Assembly (NCBI GenBank): GCA_964397495.1
Contig: CAYNIO010000001.1
Span: 1 to 27,082, forward strand
Direction of reading: 5' to 3'
From: an uncultured Planctomycetia bacterium
GTDB lineage: Bacteria > Omnitrophota > Gorgyraeia > Duberdicusellales > CBEUCJ01
Length of the DNA: 27,082 nucleotides
Shown here: in pieces, positions 1 through 10,097 of the stretch
How positions within the stretch are numbered: the first letter of the stretch is position 1
How the letters are laid out: every line of letters begins with the position of its first letter
Position numbers and translations under genes: made by a program
The notes under the pieces: model-generated
Seen by the model: the letters and a program-made list of their open reading frames with translations, nothing else
The model's database searches: none
Told to the model about the DNA's origin: nothing

Positions 1-576
1 CAGAGCAATCTCCCTGGCTATGCGGGCAACATTCAAAGAATGAGAATGAGTGTAGTGGTCGCGTGAATCAAGAGCCTGGGCTAAAGCCCTTATAGTCTGA
101 AGATATGTATTGTGTAAATCAGAATACAATTCCTTAAGGTGTTTTGTACTTACTTCAAGCCTCTTGCTCAATATATTTTTCTGCTTCTTAAGACTTTCTA
201 ATTTTTCCTGAAGAAACGACTCTAAACGAAATAACTTCTTGTTGAGTTCTGAAAGGGCTAAAGCCTTCTTTATCTTAAAATATACCTCCTGTTCCTTAAG
301 AGGCTTGACTAAATACTCTAAAAAACCCAACTCCAGAACCTTATTTATAATCTCAGAATTTATTATATCTAGGCAGGCTACTAAAACCACGCCGGGAAAC
401 CTAAATTTCAGGAGTTCTAAGTCCGCCTTCTTCAAACCCTGATTTAGACCGCAGATTATAACCTCGTAATGGCCGGTTCTCTCCAGGGGAGAAGTGGAGA
501 TATCAAAACTCTCGAGAATGCTCTTCAAGATATCTTCGTCTAAAGGTTTAAGGTTGTAAAAACCTATCTTAGCCAT
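1..576 (-). CDS. Atypical receiver (REC-like) domain + coiled coil + HD-GYP-type phosphodiesterase domain; 3' end lies outside the window
   Basis: Not in the ORF track; translated by hand from ATG at 576, one base after the upstream TAG. The frame is open for 192 codons to base 1: MAKIGFYNLKPLDEDILKSILESFD...YEVIICGLNQ...LEYLVKPLKEQEVYFKIKKAL...TYLQTIRALAQALDSRDHYTHSHSLNVARIAREIAL. ALAxALDxRDxYTxxHSxxV is the typical start of an HD-GYP domain, and YLVKP matches the receiver-domain KP motif. The HD and GYP motifs themselves would lie beyond the window. Confidence 0.85.
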   Translation of the reverse strand, partial: MAKIGFYNLKPLDEDILKSILESFDISTSPLERTGHYEVIICGLNQGLKKADLELLKFRFPGVVLVACLDIINSEIINKVLELGFLEYLVKPLKEQEVYFKIKKALALSELNKKLFRLESFLQEKLESLKKQKNILSKRLEVSTKHLKELYSDLHNTYLQTIRALAQALDSRDHYTHSHSLNVARIAREIAL

Positions 577-577
577 A

Positions 578-2275
578 CTATTCCTCAGTAGTTATCCTTA
601 CTACTTCCTCTAAAGTAGTAATTCCCTCAAAACATTTTTTTAGAGCGTCGTCTCTCAAAAGTTTCATACCTTTCCTTTCGACAGCGTAATTCCTTACATC
701 GTCGGAAGAAGCACCCTTTATAATCATCTCCCGAATGTGGTCGTCTATCTCCAGGCATTCTAAAAGCGGGACCCTGCCATGATAACCAGTCATATTGCAA
801 TACTCACACCCCTTGCCACAATAGAAAACCTGATTCTTAGGAAGGTCTCTTATGTCTAACCTTTTTAAAACTAAATCTGAGACCTTGTAAGGCTGTTTGC
901 ACTTGGGGCATATCTTCCTTGCTAACCGCTGGGCCGTAACCAGGATTAATGAAGACGCCACCAAAAATGGCTCTATACCCATATCTTCCAATCTGGTTAT
1001 GGCCCCACAGGAATCGTTGGTGTGGAGTGTAGAAAGAATTAAAGTGCCTGTAAGCGAAGCTTTGATAGCGATATCTGCAGTTTCTGAATCCCTTATCTCC
1101 CCCACAAGAATAATATCTGGGCTCTGCCTCAATACTGCCCTTAAACCCTGGGCAAAGGTAAGACCGATTTCAGGCTTTACCTGAATCTGAGTTATACCTT
1201 CTATCTGGTACTCCACAGGATCCTCAATGGTAATAATATTGCGGTCCGGGGTATTCAACTGCTGAATTATAGAATAAAGAGTGGTGGATTTCCCGCTGCC
1301 GGTGGGGCCGGTAACTAAAATTATCCCATAAGGCTTCTTGATAGCCTCTTGAAAGATGCTCAAAGGCTCAGGGGAAAAACCTAACTTGTCTAAACCTATG
1401 GAAAGATTGCCTTTGTCTAAAGCGCGCAATACGAATTTTTCTCCAAATATAGAAGGGAGGCTTGAAACCCTGAAGTCAACCTCTCTATTCTCCATTTTTA
1501 CCTTAAACCTTCCATCCTGAGGTATGCGGCTCTCTGTAATATCTAAACCAGACATAATTTTAAGGCGGGCAATGACTGCATTTTGATTGCTTTTGGGAAG
1601 GTTGTAAGCTTGATGCAAAGCCCCATCTATCCTGTAGCGCACAATTAAAGAATCTTCTTTAGGCTCAATATGGATATCAGAAACCCTCCTGCGTAACCCC
1701 TCGTAAAGTATCAAATCCACCAGTTTAACAATAGGCGCCCTCTCACTTTCCTTTATAGCTTCAAATACATCGAGTTCTTCAGCCTCTACCACCTCTACCC
1801 CAGAGTCTTGAGAACCCAAGCCCTTGATAATCTCTGAAAAGGGAGTATCTTGGGCAGAGTATAACTTGCTTAAGAAACTCTGAATATCAGACGAGGGAGC
1901 AAGGACAAACTCTACCCTTCTTCCGGTAGATATATAAAGGTCGTCTATAGTCTGGATATCAAAAGGATTTGAAGTTGCTACCATTATCAAATCTTTATCT
2001 AATTTAAGAGGGCAGATATTATGCTTAAAAGCAAGTTCGGAAGGAAAGATATCCTTTAATTCCGGAGAAACTTCCAAATCCCTTAAATCTACATAACTAA
2101 ACCCAAAAACTTCCGCTACTATCTTCAGAAAATCCTCTTCAGAAAACAAACCTTCCTTCACCAAGGCCTGCTTAAGGTCTCGATAGGAATAAATCTTGTC
2201 TATAAGTTCTATCTTCCTGGATTCCACTCCTTTATCCTGAAGAATTTTCTTAATCTTTTCCTTTAATTTATTCAT
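578..2275 (-). CDS. pilB: Type IV pilus / type II secretion assembly ATPase (PilB/GspE family), copy 2
   Basis: SDIHIEP, PQDGRF, Walker A GPTGSGKST, TIEDPVEY, Walker B PDIILVGEIRD, His box STLHTND, zinc motif CPKC...CEYC, GYHGR. Start overlaps the upstream stop (ATGA). Confidence 0.93.
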   Translation of the reverse strand: MNKLKEKIKKILQDKGVESRKIELIDKIYSYRDLKQALVKEGLFSEEDFLKIVAEVFGFSYVDLRDLEVSPELKDIFPSELAFKHNICPLKLDKDLIMVATSNPFDIQTIDDLYISTGRRVEFVLAPSSDIQSFLSKLYSAQDTPFSEIIKGLGSQDSGVEVVEAEELDVFEAIKESERAPIVKLVDLILYEGLRRRVSDIHIEPKEDSLIVRYRIDGALHQAYNLPKSNQNAVIARLKIMSGLDITESRIPQDGRFKVKMENREVDFRVSSLPSIFGEKFVLRALDKGNLSIGLDKLGFSPEPLSIFQEAIKKPYGIILVTGPTGSGKSTTLYSIIQQLNTPDRNIITIEDPVEYQIEGITQIQVKPEIGLTFAQGLRAVLRQSPDIILVGEIRDSETADIAIKASLTGTLILSTLHTNDSCGAITRLEDMGIEPFLVASSLILVTAQRLARKICPKCKQPYKVSDLVLKRLDIRDLPKNQVFYCGKGCEYCNMTGYHGRVPLLECLEIDDHIREMIIKGASSDDVRNYAVERKGMKLLRDDALKKCFEGITTLEEVVRITTEE

Positions 2276-3978
2276 AATGGTTCATCAGGGGCAGTACTTT
2301 TTACTACCTCATCTAAAGACGTTATGCCCTTAACCACTTTGAGCAATCCGTCCTCCCTGAGGGTACGCATCCCTTCAAGCCGGCCTTGTTTTTTTATCTC
2401 ATATTCCTGGGCTCCTTTTAGGACCAGTTTTTTTATCTGGGGAGACAAAAAAAGAACCTCGCATATTCCAATCCTCCCCCTGTAGCCTGTATTCAAACAA
2501 TACCTGCACCCCTTTGGCCTGAAAACCTTCAAGTTATGATTTCTAGATTCCTTAAAACCTAAGCGGGAAACAATATCTGGGGAGAGCACATATTCTTCCT
2601 TGCAATGTTCGCACAATCTCCTCACCAGACGCTGGGCTAAAACCCCCACCAGAGTAGAAGTCAGAAGATAAGACTCCGCCCCCATGTTCACCAATCTTAT
2701 TATCGCTCCTGGAGCGGTGGTAGTGTGGATTGTAGAAAGCAAAAGATGGCCTGTTAAAGCAGCCTTTATAGAAATGTCCAGAGTATCGTAATCTCTTATT
2801 TCTCCTACCATAATGATGTCTGGGTCCTGCCTCAATATAGAACGCAGGGCACTGGCGAAGGTTAACCCTACCTCTGTATTTACATTCACTTGAGTCACCG
2901 TATCTATCTGGTATTCTACCGGGTCCTCAACAGTTATGAGATTTTTCTCGGGGTCGTCTACAAATTTAAGTATGGAATAAAGGGATGTGGTCTTGCCGCT
3001 CCCTGAAGGGCCACAGACAAGTATCATGCCGTGGGGCCGGGAAGCACATTTTTTTATCACCTCTAAAGAATCGTCCTCAAATCCTAAGCGGTCTAAATCT
3101 AGAAGGGCCTGTGACCTGTCCAGAATTCTTAGGGCTACCTTCTCTCCGAAACTTGAAGGTATGCAGGAAACTCTAAAATCTACAATCCTGCCCGAAATTC
3201 TTGCTTTGAACCTTCCATCTTGGGGGAGGCGGTGCTCAGCAATATCTAAATTAGAAAGAACCTTGATACGGGTTACCATATAAGGATGGGTAGCCTTGGG
3301 AGGAGATTCCACCTCCTGCAATACCCCATCTATCCTGAATCTTATCCTTAATCTTTTTTCTAAGGGCTCAATGAGTATGTCTGATGCGCGGGAATCCACT
3401 GCCCTCTTTAGAAGGCTGTCTGTGAATTTAACAATCGGCGCTTCCTCTACAGTCCTTTCTATAACCTCATTTTTTCCTCCAGAAACAATTTCCAAATCTG
3501 GCTTGGAAATATTATCTATAAGATTCTCTATAATCTGACCTGTTTTCTGCTCATAAAGGGTAGATATTTTCTCCTTTATTTCATCAGAACTTGAGATGAT
3601 AGGATTTATCTCAAGGCCTGTAATTTGCCTGAGGTCATCTAAAGCAAATATATTCAAAGGGTCAGAGGTTGCCACAGTAAGGGTTCTGCCAATCTTCGCC
3701 AGAGGAAGAATCTCGTATTTTTTAATAAAGTCAACGGGTATTATCTTAGAAAGGCTGTCATCTATCTTAAAACGGGAAATCTTTAAAAGAGGTATGCCCA
3801 AACCATAACTTAAAGCCAACATAAGGTCTTTTTCGTGAATTAACCCCATCTTCACCAAGATGTGCGAAAGGGAGCCCCCATTCTCCTTCTGGAATCTCAA
3901 AGCATTTTCTAAGTCTTGCACAGAGACCAACTTGTTTTCTACCAAAAAATTCTTCAACTTCTCCTGAAGGGGAATCAT
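2272..3978 (-). CDS. pilB: Type IV pilus / type II secretion assembly ATPase (PilB/GspE family), copy 1
   Basis: SDILIEP, PQDGRF, Walker A GPSGSGKTT, TVEDPVEY, Walker B PDIIMVGEIRD, STIHTTT, CEHC...CRYC, GYRGR. Start overlaps the upstream stop (ATGA). Confidence 0.93.
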   Translation of the reverse strand: MIPLQEKLKNFLVENKLVSVQDLENALRFQKENGGSLSHILVKMGLIHEKDLMLALSYGLGIPLLKISRFKIDDSLSKIIPVDFIKKYEILPLAKIGRTLTVATSDPLNIFALDDLRQITGLEINPIISSSDEIKEKISTLYEQKTGQIIENLIDNISKPDLEIVSGGKNEVIERTVEEAPIVKFTDSLLKRAVDSRASDILIEPLEKRLRIRFRIDGVLQEVESPPKATHPYMVTRIKVLSNLDIAEHRLPQDGRFKARISGRIVDFRVSCIPSSFGEKVALRILDRSQALLDLDRLGFEDDSLEVIKKCASRPHGMILVCGPSGSGKTTSLYSILKFVDDPEKNLITVEDPVEYQIDTVTQVNVNTEVGLTFASALRSILRQDPDIIMVGEIRDYDTLDISIKAALTGHLLLSTIHTTTAPGAIIRLVNMGAESYLLTSTLVGVLAQRLVRRLCEHCKEEYVLSPDIVSRLGFKESRNHNLKVFRPKGCRYCLNTGYRGRIGICEVLFLSPQIKKLVLKGAQEYEIKKQGRLEGMRTLREDGLLKVVKGITSLDEVVKSTAPDEPL

Positions 3979-4448
3979 CTTTTTGCTTCCAGGGATTCTT
4001 TGCCTTGAGGAAAATACTTCTCCAGGGCCCTTCTATACTCTGATTCTGTGCAGATAAATATTTGCAAGTCCAAACCTGTTTCTTCTTCAACCCTCCCTAA
4101 ACTCTCCCTGTCCAAAGGGTCAGGGGTAGCACAGATAAGAATTTTTCCCACTATATCTATAGGAATTACTTTGTATTTGTAAGGAAGGTGGTAAGGAAAT
4201 TCTTTAACCACCCTCTCTTCAATCTCATAATTATCTAAAGGCAAGTAAGGGAAGCCGTACTGCAGAGAAATAGCGTATACAATATCTTCCTCCTTAATAA
4301 AACCTAAGGAGACTAAAATTTTGCCAATAGGGTCCTTGCTCTGTTTTTGGACCTGGAGGGCTTCTCTTACCTGCTCTTTTTTCAGTACCCCAGCCTCTAC
4401 AAGAATCTCTCCCAGCGGTTTCTCTATAACCTTTTTTATAAAAACCAT
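3975..4448 (-). CDS. Stand-alone MshEN / GspE N-terminal domain protein (candidate c-di-GMP receptor)
   Basis: Two 24-residue MshEN-type motifs separated by 5 residues (PLGEILVEAGVLKKEQVREALQVQ-KQSKD-PIGKILVSLGFIKEEDIVYAISLQ), then a GspE-N-like region (YGFPYL...VIPI...ATPDPLD). No ATPase domain. ATG at 4448 is preferred over the track's TTG at 4451. Confidence 0.85.
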   Translation of the reverse strand: MVFIKKVIEKPLGEILVEAGVLKKEQVREALQVQKQSKDPIGKILVSLGFIKEEDIVYAISLQYGFPYLPLDNYEIEERVVKEFPYHLPYKYKVIPIDIVGKILICATPDPLDRESLGRVEEETGLDLQIFICTESEYRRALEKYFPQGKESLEAKR

Positions 4449-4456
4449 CAATTAAA

Positions 4457-4485
4457 AATATAAATGATATTTAAGTTTATGTCAA
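4457..4485 (-). promoter_or_regulatory. Sigma70-type promoter for the MshEN-pilB-pilB-HD-GYP operon
   Basis: Minus strand TTGACA (4485-4480), 17-nt spacer, TATATT (4462-4457), in a 62-bp intergenic gap. The -10 box ends 8 nt before ATG 4448. Confidence 0.75.
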
Positions 4486-4513
4486 TTAAACTCTTGCATA
4501 AATTTATTGCGCA

Positions 4514-6178
4514 TCAATGGGGGGCGAATATTACATGGCTCCATGGCAGGCTGTCACCCTGAGATTTGCTCTGAATATATTCTTCTGGAGGAAGGGAATG
4601 TTTCTTGCAGACACTCAACAAGTCTTTATGTTCCTGCAAGGTGAAAGAAAAATTACGCAGCGGTCCTTTATTTGCGTAAACTTCTACTAAAAAGGGAGCA
4701 ACCCTGCGGTCTGAACGGGAAAGAAACGCTTCCCAAAAACTTTTATAGGGATTGTGAAAATCCCAAACGATATTCTTGAAAACTTTGAGGTTATTTTTAA
4801 AGAAATGGTGTTTGCGCAATAAAGAATCTATGGAATCTAAAGAGACGTTCTCTAAAGGGGTGAAGGGCTTGGGTATAAAATTAGAAAAACTAAGGTGTAG
4901 TTTAAAGTTCTTTCCTTTAATAAGGCGCCCCAAAGAAACAATAAAATCAAGCGTTTGGATAAGGTCATCGTCTTCTTCTTGAGGCAGGCCTAAAATAAAA
5001 TAAAGCTTAAGGGTGCGGTATCTGTAATCCAGGGCAAATCTCAAAACTTCTCTAATCTGACCCAAAGGTATCACCTTGTCTATTAACTTGGCAAGGCGTA
5101 AGGAACAGGTTTCTGGAGCCAGGGTAAGGGATGTCCTTTTTATGCGAGAAATTTTTTTTCCAAGACTGCCCAAGATTTGAGAAACCCTCAGCGAAGGCAG
5201 GCTTATACTGACACCTTTGTCTTTAAACATATCTGTAAGGGAATCTATTATCTGTTCTATGCAGGGGTGGTCTCCTGAAGACAAAGACAATAGGGCAATC
5301 TCTTCATACCCTGTAGCACGAAATAATCTTGAGGCTAAATCAATGATTTTCTCTTTGCTTCTTAACCGCCAGGGAAAATATTGACTTCTAGCCTGACAAA
5401 ATTTGCATCGGTGAGGACAACCTCTCATAATCTCTAAAGAGATTCTGTCGTGGACTATCTCTATATAGGGAACTAACCAATCCTCAGGGAAAAAACAATT
5501 ATCTAAATCCTGAACCGCAGCCTTTTTAATAGAGGAAGGTACATACCTTGCGGACCTCTCCAGCCCTTTAAATCTCCCTCCCTGGTAAAGAGGCTGGTAG
5601 AAACTGGGGATATATACGCCCTCTATTTGAGATAGCCTAAGCAGAAGTTCCTCCTTGGAACTCTTCCTTAAATCTTTCTTTAGGACTTCTGTTATGTGCC
5701 TTAGGCTTTTTTCAGCCTCTCCTATAAAAACGACGTCTGCAAAATCTGCTACAAATTCAGGGTTGGCAATACCCCCTACCATCACCAGAGGAAACCCACG
5801 TCTTTCAGCACTCAGAAGAGGAATTCCTGAAAGTTTAAGGATGTGCAATAAGTTAAATACGTTTAATTCATAATTTAAGGTAAACCCTAGAACATCAAAA
5901 TCCTTTAAAGGAATTCTACCCTTAAGAGAGCGCAAAGGACCTGTTTTTAAGAAAATATCCTAATAATCCTGATAAGGCAGGAAACACCTGTCTACAAAAA
6001 CACCTTCTGCTGTCTGTAGCAAACCATAAACTATCCTAAAACCTAAATTGCTCATTCCCAATTCATAACTCTCAGGAAAACACAAACAGACCTTAAGAGC
6101 GTTGGAATTTAGGGTTCTGCCTTTATCATTCCACTCGTGATTTATATAACGGGCAGGTTTGGATACCTTGACAAGCAT
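4514..6178 (-). pseudogene. TIGR03960-like radical SAM protein interrupted by one in-frame TAG (5960-5962); pseudogene, sequence error or readthrough
   Basis: Track ORFs 5960..6178 and 4514..5935 are in the same frame: ...RCFLPYQDY*DIFLKTGPLRSLKGRIPLKDFDVLGFTLNYELN. The N-terminus has family-like motifs KPARY, FPESYELGMSNLG; downstream are RGCPHRCKFC (CxxxCxxC), SLPSLR, LTLAPE, KLYFILGLP, FIPKPFTP and LPWSHV. The start overlaps the rodA stop (TGATG). Location after rodA fits this family. Confidence 0.8.
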
Positions 6179-7263
6179 CAGCGTCCTTTAAGGGAAAAGA
6201 GAGAACCCAGAAGAAAAAAATCTAAGATGGTATGGGTGCCTCCATAGGTGAGGAAAGGCAAAGGCAGGCCCACCACAGGAAGCAGGCCTAGATTCATCCC
6301 TATATTTATGAATATATGCAAGAGAAAATAGAAAAATACTGCCTGAGCATAGATCTTGTCAAAATTGGTAATGGCTTGGGAACGTTTATAAAGAATAAAT
6401 TTTAAAATAAAGAAATAAAGCAACAATAAGAACACACACCCCACAAAACCCCATTCTTCAGCGTAAACACTAAAAATAAAGTCAGTATGCCTTTCAGGCA
6501 AAAAATTAAATTGGCTCTGGGTACCGCTCATAAAACCCTTTCCTGCAACTCCCCCTGAACCAATAGCAATCTTGGCCTGAATGATGGTGTAACCTGCCCC
6601 AAAAGGGTCTTCTTGAGGGTTGAGGAATATAAGGAGGCGTTTCTTTTGATAATCCTTTAAATGGGGGAAAAGCAGAGGAGAGGCAAGAATACCCAGCATT
6701 ATAAAATAAAGTATGTATTTTTTCTTAAGAGGAAGAAAAAAATACATACATATAAATATCAAAATATAAAATATAGCTGTGCCTAAATCCGGTTCAAGAA
6801 ACACTAGAAATGCTGGAACTGCTGTAAGAATAAGAGGAGCAAGAAATTCGTACCAGAAAACCCTCGGCCAAGACATAAAGAAGGATATCCCCTGAAAATA
6901 TCTATGCCACCAGAAAGCAAGGATTGCCAGAATAGCGAACTTCATTATCTCTGAAGGCTGAAAAGAAAAACCCCCTAGGCCCAGCCACCTCTGGGAACCT
7001 CCCACTTCCTTCCCCAGGATTAAAACCCCAAAAAGAAGCATCAATCCCCCCAAGTAAAGGGCACCTGCCAATTCATAAAGGGGGAGCCTAAATTTCAACA
7101 ATATTAAAAATATTACCCAACCTAACCCGAGCCAGATGGTATGCTTAAAAAGAATGCCTTTATATAAAATATTCCCTGCATAGGAGACAGCACTCATCAG
7201 GTTAAGGATGCTCAAGAAACTTATAATAACTAATGAAGAGATAAGAGTATCTTTATTCTTCAT
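6178..7263 (-). CDS. rodA: Rod shape-determining protein RodA (SEDS glycosyltransferase)
   Basis: Multi-TM protein with GSQRW, FQPSE, EPDLGTA, AIGSGG, LPERHTDFIF, LPFLTYGG; directly follows mrdA. Confidence 0.95.
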   Translation of the reverse strand: MKNKDTLISSLVIISFLSILNLMSAVSYAGNILYKGILFKHTIWLGLGWVIFLILLKFRLPLYELAGALYLGGLMLLFGVLILGKEVGGSQRWLGLGGFSFQPSEIMKFAILAILAFWWHRYFQGISFFMSWPRVFWYEFLAPLILTAVPAFLVFLEPDLGTAIFYILIFICMYFFLPLKKKYILYFIMLGILASPLLFPHLKDYQKKRLLIFLNPQEDPFGAGYTIIQAKIAIGSGGVAGKGFMSGTQSQFNFLPERHTDFIFSVYAEEWGFVGCVFLLLLYFFILKFILYKRSQAITNFDKIYAQAVFFYFLLHIFINIGMNLGLLPVVGLPLPFLTYGGTHTILDFFLLGSLFSLKGR

Positions 7264-8959
7264 CCAGCAACCCCTCTTCTCTAAGAGACTTTAAAAAACT
7301 ATGGGCTGTTTTGCAAGCAAAGAAACTTGAGCCTCCGTGTTCAAGAAACACCACAAATACGTACCTGGGCTTCTTGTAAGGAAAAAAACCTGCAACCCAG
7401 GAATGAGGCGCTCTGTTAGTTTGAGCAGTCCCTGTCTTAGCGCATATCTTCAACTTTAAATCTTCGAGGATATGGGCAGTCCCTCCTTTGTCTCTCACCG
7501 CTCTTCTCATACCATCCCTTACCGTATCCAGATTAACTCTCGAGGCCTCAAGCGTCTCCTGCTGGGAAGGCTCTATGTCTAATGTCCCAATTCTCCTTAT
7601 TATATAAGGCTTGCTAAATCTACCCTGAGCCAATGAGGAAACCATTCTGTAGACCTGCAGGGGTGTAGTTAAAACCCAGCCCTGGCCTATGCTGAGATTG
7701 CAGGTATCTCCCTTAGTCCAACTCCTCCTTAAGGAAAACTGCTTCCATTCCGGGCTGGGCAAGAACCCTGCAGAAGAAGGGAAATACGAAAATACTCTCC
7801 TGCCTAATCCTAACATATGCGCATATTTTAAAATTCTTTGAGGCCCCAGGAGTAAACCCACGTTGTAGAAAAAAACATTACAGGAATTCTTTAAAGCCTC
7901 CCTCACATCCTGAAGACCATGCCTCATCCAACATTTAAAGGTCTGTTGCCCCACAAGAAACTCACCCGGGCAGAAAAACTGTGTTTTATCTGTAATTACT
8001 GACTCTTCTAAACCTGCGGTAGCCACCACCAACTTAAATATTGAACCAGGAGGATACCTCCCCTGCAGTGCCCTGTTATAAAGAGGGGCGTCCAGACTTC
8101 TCAGAACCTTATTTATATAAGAAGAATTTCTTTGTGTAAATTTCTGGGAGTCGAATCCAGGAAAAGAAACTAAAGCTAAAATCTCTCCCTGGGGCCTGCC
8201 AAAGATTATACAACCCTTTTTTCCTTTGAGGGCTTGGAAAGCCAACCTCTGAATATCTACATTTAAGGTAAGTTCGATGTCATTCCCCTTCAGAGGATAC
8301 TTTACCTGCAGCGTCCTGATTTTGTGCGAAGAAGCGTCCACTATAATTATGCGGCCTCCGTCCTTGCCCCTCAAATATTCATCGTAGTATTTTTCTAATC
8401 CCAAATGCCCAATTCTGCGAGGAGGGCTAAGGCCGTATTTCTTAAACAAGAAATATTCCTCCTTGGTAGTATAACCTACATATCCTACCAAATTAGAGAA
8501 TTCATAAGGATAGTGATAGTAACGCCTGAACCTGCGTATAATACCCAAACCCTTAATCCTATAAAGATTTCTTTTTATCTCCTGCAACTCTTTCCTTGAG
8601 AGTTCGTCTTTAAGGACTACGGGCAGAAAACGGGAGACAAAATTCCTTTTGTAGAGCCTTTTCAAAGAAAAGGCGTCAACCTCTAAAAGCAAGGAAACCT
8701 CTTTAAAGAAATACTGAAGATTTTTTACCTCCTGGGGATAAACTACACAGGAATAAATCTGGACATCTTCAGCGATGGGGCGGTTGTGACGATCAAGAAT
8801 TCTTCCCCGCTTCGCAGGCAGGGAAACTACCTTAAGATAATTCCCTGAAGATATAACCCGGTAATAATTAAAATCTTTTACCTGTAAAGACCAGAGGCCA
8901 GCGATTATTGCCAGGAATACAAAAAAACATATAATCCAGAGTCTTCTCTCAACGGACAT
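7253..8959 (-). CDS. mrdA: Penicillin-binding protein 2 (class B PBP)
   Basis: N-terminal TM anchor, RGRILDR, transpeptidase motifs SxxK (PGSIFK), SxN (SCN) and KTG (AKTGT); lies between mreB and rodA. Confidence 0.93.
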   Translation of the reverse strand: MSVERRLWIICFFVFLAIIAGLWSLQVKDFNYYRVISSGNYLKVVSLPAKRGRILDRHNRPIAEDVQIYSCVVYPQEVKNLQYFFKEVSLLLEVDAFSLKRLYKRNFVSRFLPVVLKDELSRKELQEIKRNLYRIKGLGIIRRFRRYYHYPYEFSNLVGYVGYTTKEEYFLFKKYGLSPPRRIGHLGLEKYYDEYLRGKDGGRIIIVDASSHKIRTLQVKYPLKGNDIELTLNVDIQRLAFQALKGKKGCIIFGRPQGEILALVSFPGFDSQKFTQRNSSYINKVLRSLDAPLYNRALQGRYPPGSIFKLVVATAGLEESVITDKTQFFCPGEFLVGQQTFKCWMRHGLQDVREALKNSCNVFFYNVGLLLGPQRILKYAHMLGLGRRVFSYFPSSAGFLPSPEWKQFSLRRSWTKGDTCNLSIGQGWVLTTPLQVYRMVSSLAQGRFSKPYIIRRIGTLDIEPSQQETLEASRVNLDTVRDGMRRAVRDKGGTAHILEDLKLKICAKTGTAQTNRAPHSWVAGFFPYKKPRYVFVVFLEHGGSSFFACKTAHSFLKSLREEGLLDEE

Positions 8960-9011
8960 CTATAAAATGAAAAATTTTATGAATGGATATCTTAAATAGG
9001 AAGGATGTATT

Positions 9012-10097
9012 TTATCCTTCTCCGCGTGAGGCAACTATCAGTCTCTTCAGGTACCCAAACTCCTCCAGGACTTTGCCTGTGCCTAAGGCTACAGCAGTTA
9101 TGGGGTCATCGGCTACAAATACAGGCAGACCCGTCTCTTGTGCTAAGAGTTTATCCAGCCCTCTTAAAAGAGAACCCCCTCCTGCCAAGACTATTCCCCT
9201 CTCAATCAAATCTGCAGCCAACTCTGGAGGAGTCCTTTCTAAAGTAATTTTGGTAGCTTCTATAATTTCCCTTATGGGAGACTCCAAAGCCTCCCTCACC
9301 TCTTGAGAGGTTATCTTTACATGTTTGGGCAGACCCACAATTAAATCTCTCCCCTTAACCTCCATCTCCATCTCTTCCTCCTGAGGGTAGGCTGAACCTA
9401 TTTTTATCTTTATCTCCTCAGCAGTACGTTCGCCTATCATAAGGTTATAGTTTTTCTTCATATATTCAATTATGGCTTCGTCCATCTCGTCTCCGCCTAT
9501 CCTTATAGATTTAGCAAATACTATACCCCCTAGAGAAATGACTGCAATCTCAGTGGTGCCTCCACCGATATCAATAATCATACACCCTGTTGGCTCCTCA
9601 ATGGGAAGACCCACACCTATGGCTCCTGCTAAAGGCTCTTCAATCCAGAAGACGTCTCTGGCACCTGCTTTAAAAGCAGACTCTTTGACTGCGCGCTTCT
9701 CCACCTCGGTTATCCCCGAGGGGATAGCGATTACCATTCTGGGCCTCCCCGAAAACCTTCCAGGATTAACCTTCTTTATAAAATAGCGGAGCATCTTTTC
9801 TGAAATATCAAAATCCGCTATAACTCCGTCTTTCATAGGCCTTATAGCCACAATGCTACCTGGTGTTTTTCCCAGCATACGTTTGGCTTCGGCCCCCACT
9901 GCCAGAACGTTATTGGTTCCCTTCTGTATGGCTACCACTGAAGGCTCGCATAAGGCTATACCTTGGTTCTTAACGTAGATAAGCGTGGTGGCTGTGCCTA
10001 AATCTACGCCTATATCGTTAGAGAAGAGACCTAGAATCTTATCGCTTACTCTAGTGAATCTTTCTTTTAACTGAGAGGTAAGATTTAAAGGCATCAT
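9012..10097 (-). CDS. mreB: Rod shape-determining actin homologue MreB
   Basis: [56 protein letters not shown]. Start could be either of two tandem ATGs (10097 or 10094). Confidence 0.97.

Follow-up and report, generated by a model that had tools for sequence, protein, structure and literature searches.

The 27,082 bases analyzed here, the entire contig CAYNIO010000001.1 of assembly GCA_964397495.1 (the window), end in a set of pilus genes in which a small stand-alone MshEN protein is followed directly by two paralogous type IV pilus extension ATPases, called PilB1 and PilB2 below. The small protein carries an intact predicted site for cyclic di-GMP (c-di-GMP), whereas the MshEN-type N domains of both ATPases have degenerate sites. 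This trio is a real, phylum-wide feature of the Omnitrophota pilus, and its sequences suggest that it functions in c-di-GMP sensing in trans. In the reading we favor, to which we give about an even chance, the free MshEN protein would receive the c-di-GMP signal for a pilus extension motor with two ATPases, the N domains of which are themselves depleted of ligand contacts. The public runs that hold the window sequence are hydrothermal-vent and marine metagenomes.

The small protein matches Pfam PF05157 (MshEN) at 50 bits over residues 64-150 and the NCBIfam model NF053729, which covers MshE-related c-di-GMP motifs, at 63.2 bits (cut-off 38, E = 1.4e-17), in an end-to-end alignment of model positions 1-53 to residues 11-63. 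These residues read PLGEILVEAGVLKKEQVREALQVQ-kqskd-PIGKILVSLGFIKEEDIVYAISLQ, i.e., motif 1 at residues 11-34, a spacer at 35-39 and motif 2 at 40-63, and they fit 22 of the 22 constrained positions in the relaxed motif of Wang et al. (2016). The 24+5+24 MshEN architecture that a first-pass annotation of the window had proposed is therefore well founded. Both motifs have glycine at position 3 (G13 and G42), and the stacking triads with their terminal glutamine (positions 2, 17, 21 and 24) are L12/V27/L31/Q34 and I41/I56/I60/Q63. Among 28 aligned homologues, G13, Q34, G42 and Q63 are invariant. The departure lies at position 1, where the consensus has Arg (R/K/L in its extended form) and the small protein has proline in both motifs, not in the first alone as had been annotated. 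An AlphaFold model built with 28 homologues (predicted local distance difference test 88, predicted template modeling score 0.79) places helices at residues 12-18, 24-36, 41-47 and 53-64, followed by a mixed alpha/beta subdomain. Its top Foldseek match is MshE with c-di-GMP (5HTL; template modeling scores, TM, 0.76/0.84; root-mean-square deviation 2.3 A), and the next structural matches are the GSPII domains of PilF and the N domain of Xanthomonas PilB. By sequence the closest solved relative is Thermus PilF (E = 8.5e-34), and the position-by-position alignment with its GSPII-B domain includes Q190 and Q218.

Published binders indicate how such a site can be read. The position-3 Gly, whose backbone NH binds guanine O6/N7, is critical: in MshE, the G11L mutation abolishes c-di-GMP binding and G40I weakens it 72-fold (PMC5013675 supplement). 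Mutation of Arg9 shifts affinity less than five-fold, and the relaxed motif permits R, K, P or N at position 1 and demands Gly at position 3 (PMC5013675). In PilF, GSPII-B has K and L at position 1, thus no Arg, and binds at 6 nM; restoring Arg lowers the affinity. GSPII-C has a proline (P335) at one motif start and binds at ~460 nM, and no binding is seen for GSPII-A, whose second motif has Ala at position 3 (PMC11731258). According to the same authors, very high affinity can be predicted by the replacement of Arg with a more hydrophobic residue (PMC11731258). The proven binders PA14_29490 and NfrB also carry PLG. Since the relaxed motif permits Pro, Pro-bearing binders are proven and the effect of Arg9 is below five-fold, Arg at position 1 is not strictly defining. 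The caveat that the change from Arg to Pro may weaken binding, which had been attached to the first-pass annotation, is largely removed by PA14_29490, NfrB and GSPII-C, which have the proline, and by GSPII-B, which binds tightly with no Arg.

For both ATPases PilB is the best-scoring family, ahead of GspE, with TIGR02538 (PilB) scores of 638.1 bits for PilB1 and 610.9 bits for PilB2, both under the equivalog cut-off of 675.65. The Pfam domains T2SSE and MshEN are matched at 448 and 75 bits in PilB1, and at 445 and 76 bits in PilB2. Both proteins contain the Walker A, Asp box, Walker B, His box and tetra-Cys motifs, and the orthologues of both retain them, in the case of tetra-Cys for the most part. 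Therefore neither PilB is an obvious pseudo-enzyme, and both look catalytically competent by their motifs. Judged from sequence, their N domains retain the MshEN fold and have lost the key ligand-contact residues. Position 3 is K and S in the two motifs of PilB1, which also has K at motif-1 position 10 and G in place of the motif-2 Gln at position 24 (Q24). PilB2 has no position-3 Gly, and 2 residues instead of 5 separate its pseudo-motifs. The loss of the position-3 Gly from both PilBs had been noted before and is confirmed here. Their earlier description as MshEN-degenerate holds for these key residues, but not for the fold, which is kept, and the N-terminus of PilB1 still passes NF053729 (44.6 bits, cut-off 38). 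The PilB2 of the window has no match to this model.

The same division between the three proteins is found across the phylum. Open reading frames (ORFs) were called and classified in 86 non-redundant Omnitrophota loci, and the order small gene, PilB1, PilB2 occurs in all but two of the 84 informative ones. The two exceptions are a contig-end artefact and a locus (L065) with a five-gene insertion. Gly at position 3 of both motifs is present in 85 of 86 small proteins, in 0 of 79 PilB1 and in 0 of 70 PilB2 proteins, so that the intact and the degenerate sites form complementary patterns. Q24 is likewise kept in the small-protein orthologues (motif 1 in 84/86, motif 2 in 85/86), and the first residue of motif 2 is Leu in 81/86. 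Among the 79 PilB1 orthologues, the motif-2 Q24 is Gly in 49, the motif-1 position-10 Gly is Lys in 51 and the motif-1 Q24 is kept in 65; position 3 is mostly Thr or Ser, i.e., small rather than bulky. Matches to NF053729 at E <= 1e-9 were found for 28/28 small proteins, 69/79 PilB1 and 32/70 PilB2 N-termini. The first-pass annotation had proposed checking whether the gene order recurs and whether loss of the position-3 Gly in the PilBs accompanies the stand-alone gene; the trio is conserved in essentially every informative locus and the co-occurrence has no exception, whereas the fourth slot is variable. The gene after PilB2 encodes PilC in 38 loci, an HD-GYP protein of ~356 residues in 26 and a second free MshEN protein in 5.

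The small protein, PilB1 and PilB2 each form an orthologous group of their own. In the ATPase core, identity is 55-79% within the PilB1 group, 51-81% within the PilB2 group and 45-53% between them. Over the MshEN-type regions, orthologues are 39-65% identical for the small protein, 32-63% for the PilB1 N domain and 22-39% for the PilB2 N domain. About 30 close homologues of the small protein have 145-166 residues, and all named ones are from Candidatus Omnitrophota; an exhaustive profile search gave many further clusters of 145-180 residues. A scan of species-representative genomes found relatives in at least 556 genomes, and the best 80 of these are Omnitrophota or bins labelled uncultured Planctomycetes. 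In relatives the module usually has rodA and radical-SAM genes on its 5' side, as in the window. The gene immediately 5' of the small gene belongs to the GGDEF family in 58 loci and encodes PilT in 14. Genes for PilC, pilins, TPR proteins, PilM/N/O, secretin and sometimes PilT lie farther downstream.

The second stand-alone MshEN protein occurs in five lineages, has 153-171 residues with intact motifs (e.g., LLGEILV.../YIGEILV...), and is encoded between PilB2 and PilC, in the slot that is occupied by the HD-GYP gene in other lineages.

We take the free MshEN protein for an additional, putative sensor domain rather than for the product of a fission. Calling the motor "split", as had been done before, is misleading, since both PilBs keep MshEN-fold N domains and the free protein is additional to them. 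Birth of the small gene by fission of PilB1 was considered and rejected for the window, where PilB1 keeps its full N domain and the three proteins belong to separate orthologous groups. A different state is seen in one higher-GC lineage, in which PilB1 (L007:10479-11678) has 399 residues, begins at the N2 domain and has no MshEN-type N domain; the small gene lies 40 nt upstream of it, an arrangement that counts in favor of a link between the small protein and the motor. Such N-less PilB1 proteins are limited to this lineage.

A fused form also exists. A protein of 765 residues from a metagenome of the Joint Genome Institute (P0044) joins a small-type MshEN domain to a full PilB1 orthologue through a low-complexity linker of 45 residues, rich in Gly, Lys and Asn. 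Its N part is 46.6% identical to the small proteins, closer than to any PilB N domain, and its PilB1 part is 51.7% identical to PilB1 over 569 aligned positions. As evidence for a link between the small protein and PilB1, this fusion is weak.

Other variants of the small-type domain were observed. The block QYGFPYLPL (residues 63-71; 4236-4262, minus strand), at the junction of the two subdomains, is invariant in 28/28 aligned homologues and thereby more strongly conserved than the ligand motif; it might serve as a lid or as a surface for protein contacts. An MshEN domain of this Omnitrophota type, with QYGFPYLPL, is fused to a PilZ-like segment (RxxxR...NxSxxG) and a long C-terminal region in a protein of 723 residues (P0084). 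The Omnitrophota-type domain is also fused to a DnaA-like AAA+ module, annotated DnaA, in a protein of 454 residues (P0086), and the MshEN_N subdomain is duplicated in a protein of 215 residues (P0041).

In the mechanism we propose, the small protein would be part of the machinery by which Omnitrophota extend their type IVa pili and which uses two co-translated PilB paralogues. The N domains of these paralogues appear to have kept the MshEN fold and lost the glycines that hydrogen-bond the guanine bases. The free subunit would bind c-di-GMP, and the liganded subunit would then dock on the PilB1/PilB2 motor, or on a PilM/PilC socket, and thereby set extension activity. In about one third of the lineages, including that of the window, a co-transcribed pseudo-receiver HD-GYP phosphodiesterase may lower c-di-GMP locally. 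Here we infer ligand binding, the partner and the sign of the regulation, and likewise the activity of the truncated HD-GYP gene.

The phosphodiesterase would be encoded by the fourth gene, of which the window holds a degenerate receiver, a coiled coil and the first ~35 residues of an HD domain that starts at DHYTHSHS; the HD and GYP motifs fall beyond base 1. The only family match of this fragment, a weak one, is to the NCBIfam NosR-type response-regulator c-di-GMP phosphodiesterase (E = 8e-10), and it has no Pfam REC match. It is collinear over ~190 residues with the same-slot proteins of the 26 relatives (28-35% identity), and the similarity peaks from the coiled coil into DHYTHSHS. These orthologues carry HDLGKIG and HHExxDGxGYP (23 full-length proteins aligned), and one of them matches Pfam HD_5 at 120 bits. 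It is thus a sound inference from orthology that the fourth gene encodes an HD-GYP enzyme, with its catalytic motifs outside the window. The exact PilB2 sequence has no public record through which the contig could be extended, and the public contigs matched to the window were short pieces only and did not complete the gene. The orthologues resemble RpfG-type REC-HD-GYP proteins in having a receiver-like domain, a coiled coil and an HD-GYP domain with both the HD and the HHExxDGxGYP motif. They differ from them in the receiver, where the acceptor Asp is not conserved among orthologues and is missing in most, including the window copy, which reads C-G at this position (VIICGLNQG). Of the earlier proposal of a co-transcribed HD-GYP protein acting as a local switch, the identity of the enzyme is supported by orthology; the catalytic motifs lie outside the window, and the fourth slot is not constant.

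In most Omnitrophota the 5' neighbor of the small gene encodes a HAMP/GAF protein with a degenerate GGDEF-family domain (e.g., L003:6570-7880, L011:5565-7004); the gene is absent from the window. GG[DE]EF is missing in 68 of 69 such neighbors, which read SSDEF, GDNEF, EDSLG, TDKLA etc., and an RxxD I-site was found in none of the 69, although Pfam still names the domain. A role as local diguanylate cyclase was rejected on these grounds, and the protein may instead be a receptor or adaptor like FimX or PelD. A local pair of cyclase and phosphodiesterase is therefore unsupported, and there would be at most a local phosphodiesterase sink. Among the loci, L001 has the small protein closest to that of the window (62% identity) and carries, within 10 kb, three GGDEF/GGEEF genes that are intact, so these organisms can probably make c-di-GMP.

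Several observations weigh against the free protein as the c-di-GMP receptor of the motor. Proline at position 1 of both motifs is a combination without precedent among the tested proteins. Residual c-di-GMP binding by PilB1 is possible, because matches to the curated model persist in 69/79 PilB1 N-termini (and in 32/70 of PilB2) and position 3 is mostly Thr or Ser. The fusion to PilB1 is a singleton on one 50-kb contig, and a search with its junction region gave ordinary PilB1 proteins of ~570 residues only. The HD-GYP gene fills the fourth slot in only 26 of 71 informative relatives, and the window copy ends before the catalytic motifs. Finally, the degeneracy of the GGDEF-family neighbor makes the support that gene neighbors give for c-di-GMP turnover weaker than the domain names suggest.

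The small protein might bind c-di-GMP and yet have a target other than the extension ATPases, i.e., PilT, PilC/PilM or the upstream GAF/degenerate-GGDEF protein, or it might buffer c-di-GMP at the pilus base. We regard this as unlikely, though it deserves more weight than the other alternatives. The frequent position of the GAF/degenerate-GGDEF gene (58 loci) or PilT (14 loci) on the 5' side recalls adaptor chains of the FimX type, GspE is known to bind GspL through its MshEN_C/N1 subdomain (PDB entries 2BH1 and 4PHT are among the weak fold matches), and the fusions of small-type domains to PilZ-like and DnaA-like modules point to a portable sensor. However, PilB1 and PilB2 are the only invariant neighbors, neither PilT nor the GGDEF-like gene is in the window, and both the translational coupling to PilB1 and the single PilB1 fusion favor the ATPase. 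A ligand-independent role is less probable. In this case the small protein would be a structural or adaptor subunit of the N1 type, either a PilM linker or a competitor or inhibitor of the PilB N domain, and its motifs would be conserved for folding. Motif positions 6, 7, 10, 11 and 12 are indeed structural core residues (PMC5013675), PilB N domains serve as protein-docking platforms, e.g., in the PilB-PilZ complex 7LKO, and small protein inhibitors of PilB are known (PMC11656802). Nevertheless, the fold does not need the position-3 Gly or the motif-2 Q24, because PilB1 and PilB2 keep it without them, and the small protein retains these ligand-contact residues in 84-85 of 86 species.

It is also conceivable, but in our estimate still less probable, that PilB1 and perhaps PilB2 sense c-di-GMP through variant motifs, which would make the small protein a redundant third sensor, comparable to Thermus PilF with its two binding GSPII domains out of three. 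The many PilB1 N-termini that match the c-di-GMP-motif model, the motif-1 Q24 kept in 65/79 and the prevalence of Thr or Ser at position 3 would all agree with this. Against it stand the relaxed published motif, which still demands Gly at position 3, the strongly deleterious effects of G11L and G40I, and the non-binding GSPII-A of PilF, with its Ala at position 3 of the second motif; the motif-2 Gly (49/79) and the motif-1 position-10 Lys (51/79) of PilB1 point the same way. That the small gene is a functionless, decaying remnant of a PilB duplication has a negligible probability. Its homology to PilB N domains is all that speaks for this origin, and conservation effectively refutes it: the gene is intact and of constant length in at least 556 species genomes, its orthologues are 39-65% identical with invariant motif residues, and it is better conserved than the PilB N domains.

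A bolder form of the receptor reading, which we hold to be improbable, is an obligate hetero-oligomeric motor of PilB1 and PilB2. Its nucleotide-blind N domains would dock one free MshEN subunit, or two in some lineages, and c-di-GMP would act by subunit recruitment and not by allostery within a single chain. If true, it would be a first on two counts, as a heteromeric motor for type IV pilus extension and as a demonstrated case of an MshEN domain that acts in trans.

The arrangement can be compared with several known systems. Vibrio cholerae MshE (5HTL; Wang et al., 2016; PMC5013675) has the same two-subdomain fold (TM 0.76/0.84) and shares the 24+5+24 motif, the Gly at positions 3 and 10, the hydrophobic triads and Q24 in both halves. 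In MshE, however, this domain forms the N-terminal part of the ATPase and each motif begins with Arg, whereas the Omnitrophota protein is a separate chain of 157 residues with Pro starts (Gln/Pro and Leu in most orthologues), next to ATPases with degenerate domains. Thermus thermophilus PilF (PMC11731258; 6F8L, 8PDK) is likewise a pilus motor that has three MshEN-type domains, not all of them c-di-GMP binders, and its GSPII-C shares the start KPLGEILVE with the site of the small protein of the window. PilF differs in being a single polypeptide that forms a homohexamer with its three GSPII domains in cis, whereas Omnitrophota have the three domains on three polypeptides, the sole intact site on the free one, and two ATPase paralogues. 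In the FimX-PilZ-PilB chain of Xanthomonas and Pseudomonas (PMC8389850; 7LKO), separate sensor proteins dock on a nucleotide-blind PilB N domain, which is also a fold match of the small protein, and the chain includes a degenerate GGDEF protein, as do most Omnitrophota loci. In that chain a degenerate EAL domain does the sensing and a degenerate PilZ domain serves as adaptor, whereas the putative Omnitrophota sensor is an MshEN domain and a paralogue of its presumed target. Pseudomonas aeruginosa PA3740 is listed in Supplementary Table 4 of Wang et al. (2016) as an MshEN protein without an ATPase (MshEN - xT2SSE_N1), a tested binder and linked to swarming motility, and thus sets the precedent for an MshEN domain outside an ATPase; it differs in its canonical RLG motifs and highly divergent C subdomain. 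We found no report of PA3740 as a member of a conserved trio with degenerate PilBs. The Omnitrophota arrangement comes closer to a PilF whose GSPII domains are distributed over three chains, or to a FimX-PilZ-PilB chain in which an MshEN paralogue would do the sensing.

The single elements have precedents, as MshEN domains, their degenerate forms and c-di-GMP sensors that act on PilB in trans are all known. We found no published description of the trio of a stand-alone MshEN protein with tandem degenerate PilBs in the literature on stand-alone MshEN and on Omnitrophota pili and c-di-GMP. In the parts of it covered here, the published list of MshEN architectures holds neither a plain stand-alone MshEN protein nor one paired with degenerate tandem PilBs. 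A review of PilB cofactors has no account of such a trio (PMC11656802), and the Omnitrophota genomics paper mentions pili, but neither PilB nor c-di-GMP (PMC10066038). How MshEN-bound c-di-GMP alters PilB output is described as still unclear, and the reviewed PilBs have sensor and motor on one chain (PMC11656802), so that one cannot be titrated against the other. A sensor on its own polypeptide would permit separate addition of sensor and ligand and mapping of the docking surface. Omnitrophota are ultra-small and possibly host-dependent, and their type IVa pili are thought to mediate attachment (PMC10066038). A free receptor would be a plausible switch for pilus-mediated attachment in this uncultured phylum. 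There is also a lesson for annotation, as profile models tag PilB N-termini as c-di-GMP-binding and a residue-level reading points to the free protein as the likely receptor.

All genes of the window are on the minus strand, and the pilus genes come last, after a dcw cell-wall cluster, housekeeping genes, mreB, PBP2, rodA and a radical-SAM gene, from which they are separated by a short gap (Table 1). The four genes are tightly joined, as the first-pass annotation had described, by ATGA at 3978-3975 (small gene/PilB1), ATGA at 2275-2272 (PilB1/PilB2) and TAG-T-ATG at 580-574 (PilB2/fourth gene). An alternative TTG start one codon further 5' would give a small protein of 158 residues; the ATG start is favored, as the closest homologue likewise begins with MVFIKK. 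The promoter that had been assigned to these genes stands in part. TTGACA-17-TATATT is the top of 16 sigma-70-like sites in positions 1-7000 (11/12 matches), but such sites are no more numerous than expected by chance (16 against 13.1 +/- 3.5 in shuffles). Its -10 box lies 8 nt short of the ATG, with no Shine-Dalgarno sequence between them (4446-4462). If this promoter is used, the mRNA of the small gene would therefore be leaderless or nearly so. Within the window, which ends inside the fourth gene, there is no gene for PilC, pilins, PilMNO, secretin or PilT.

Table 1. Coordinates of the pilus genes, predicted sites and motifs in the window, and of the second free MshEN genes in relatives.
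Feature	Position	Strand	Remarks
Stand-alone MshEN protein, 157 aa, MshEN_N four-helix bundle + MshEN_C	3975-4448	-	ATG at 4448, stop at 3975
Predicted c-di-GMP site of the small protein, residues 11-63	4260-4418	-	Two 24-residue motifs and a 5-residue spacer
PilB1, type IV pilus extension-ATPase paralogue, 568 aa	2272-3978	-	Start overlaps the stop of the small gene
Degenerate MshEN_N motifs of PilB1, residues 7-59	3802-3960	-	KLKNFLVENK...Q / SLSHILVKMG...G
PilB2, second extension-ATPase paralogue, 565 aa	578-2275	-	Start overlaps the PilB1 stop
Degenerate N-terminal pseudo-motifs of PilB2	2108-2257	-	KIKKIL..., DLKQAL...; no position-3 Gly, shortened spacer
Predicted pseudo-receiver/coiled-coil/HD-GYP protein, first 192 aa	1-576	-	ATG at 576, cut by the contig end
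Promoter-like site, TTGACA (4485-4480), 17 nt, TATATT (4462-4457)	4457-4485	-	In the 65-nt gap after the radical-SAM gene
Second free MshEN protein in relatives	L022:11025-11486, L031:11212-11679, L050:11057-11518, L071:11017-11481, L081:10835-11350		

Two minor observations concern the neighboring genes. In the window (7253-10097) the PBP2 gene directly follows mreB without mreC and mreD, as in L001; L007 and L008 have both genes there. The radical-SAM gene (4514-6178, minus strand) has one in-frame TAG at 5960-5962, which divides it into ORFs of 72 and 473 residues; its relatives have ~550-600 residues. The contig of one public run (X3) has GAG (Glu) at this codon, and the stop is therefore either a strain-level nonsense change or a low-coverage assembly error.

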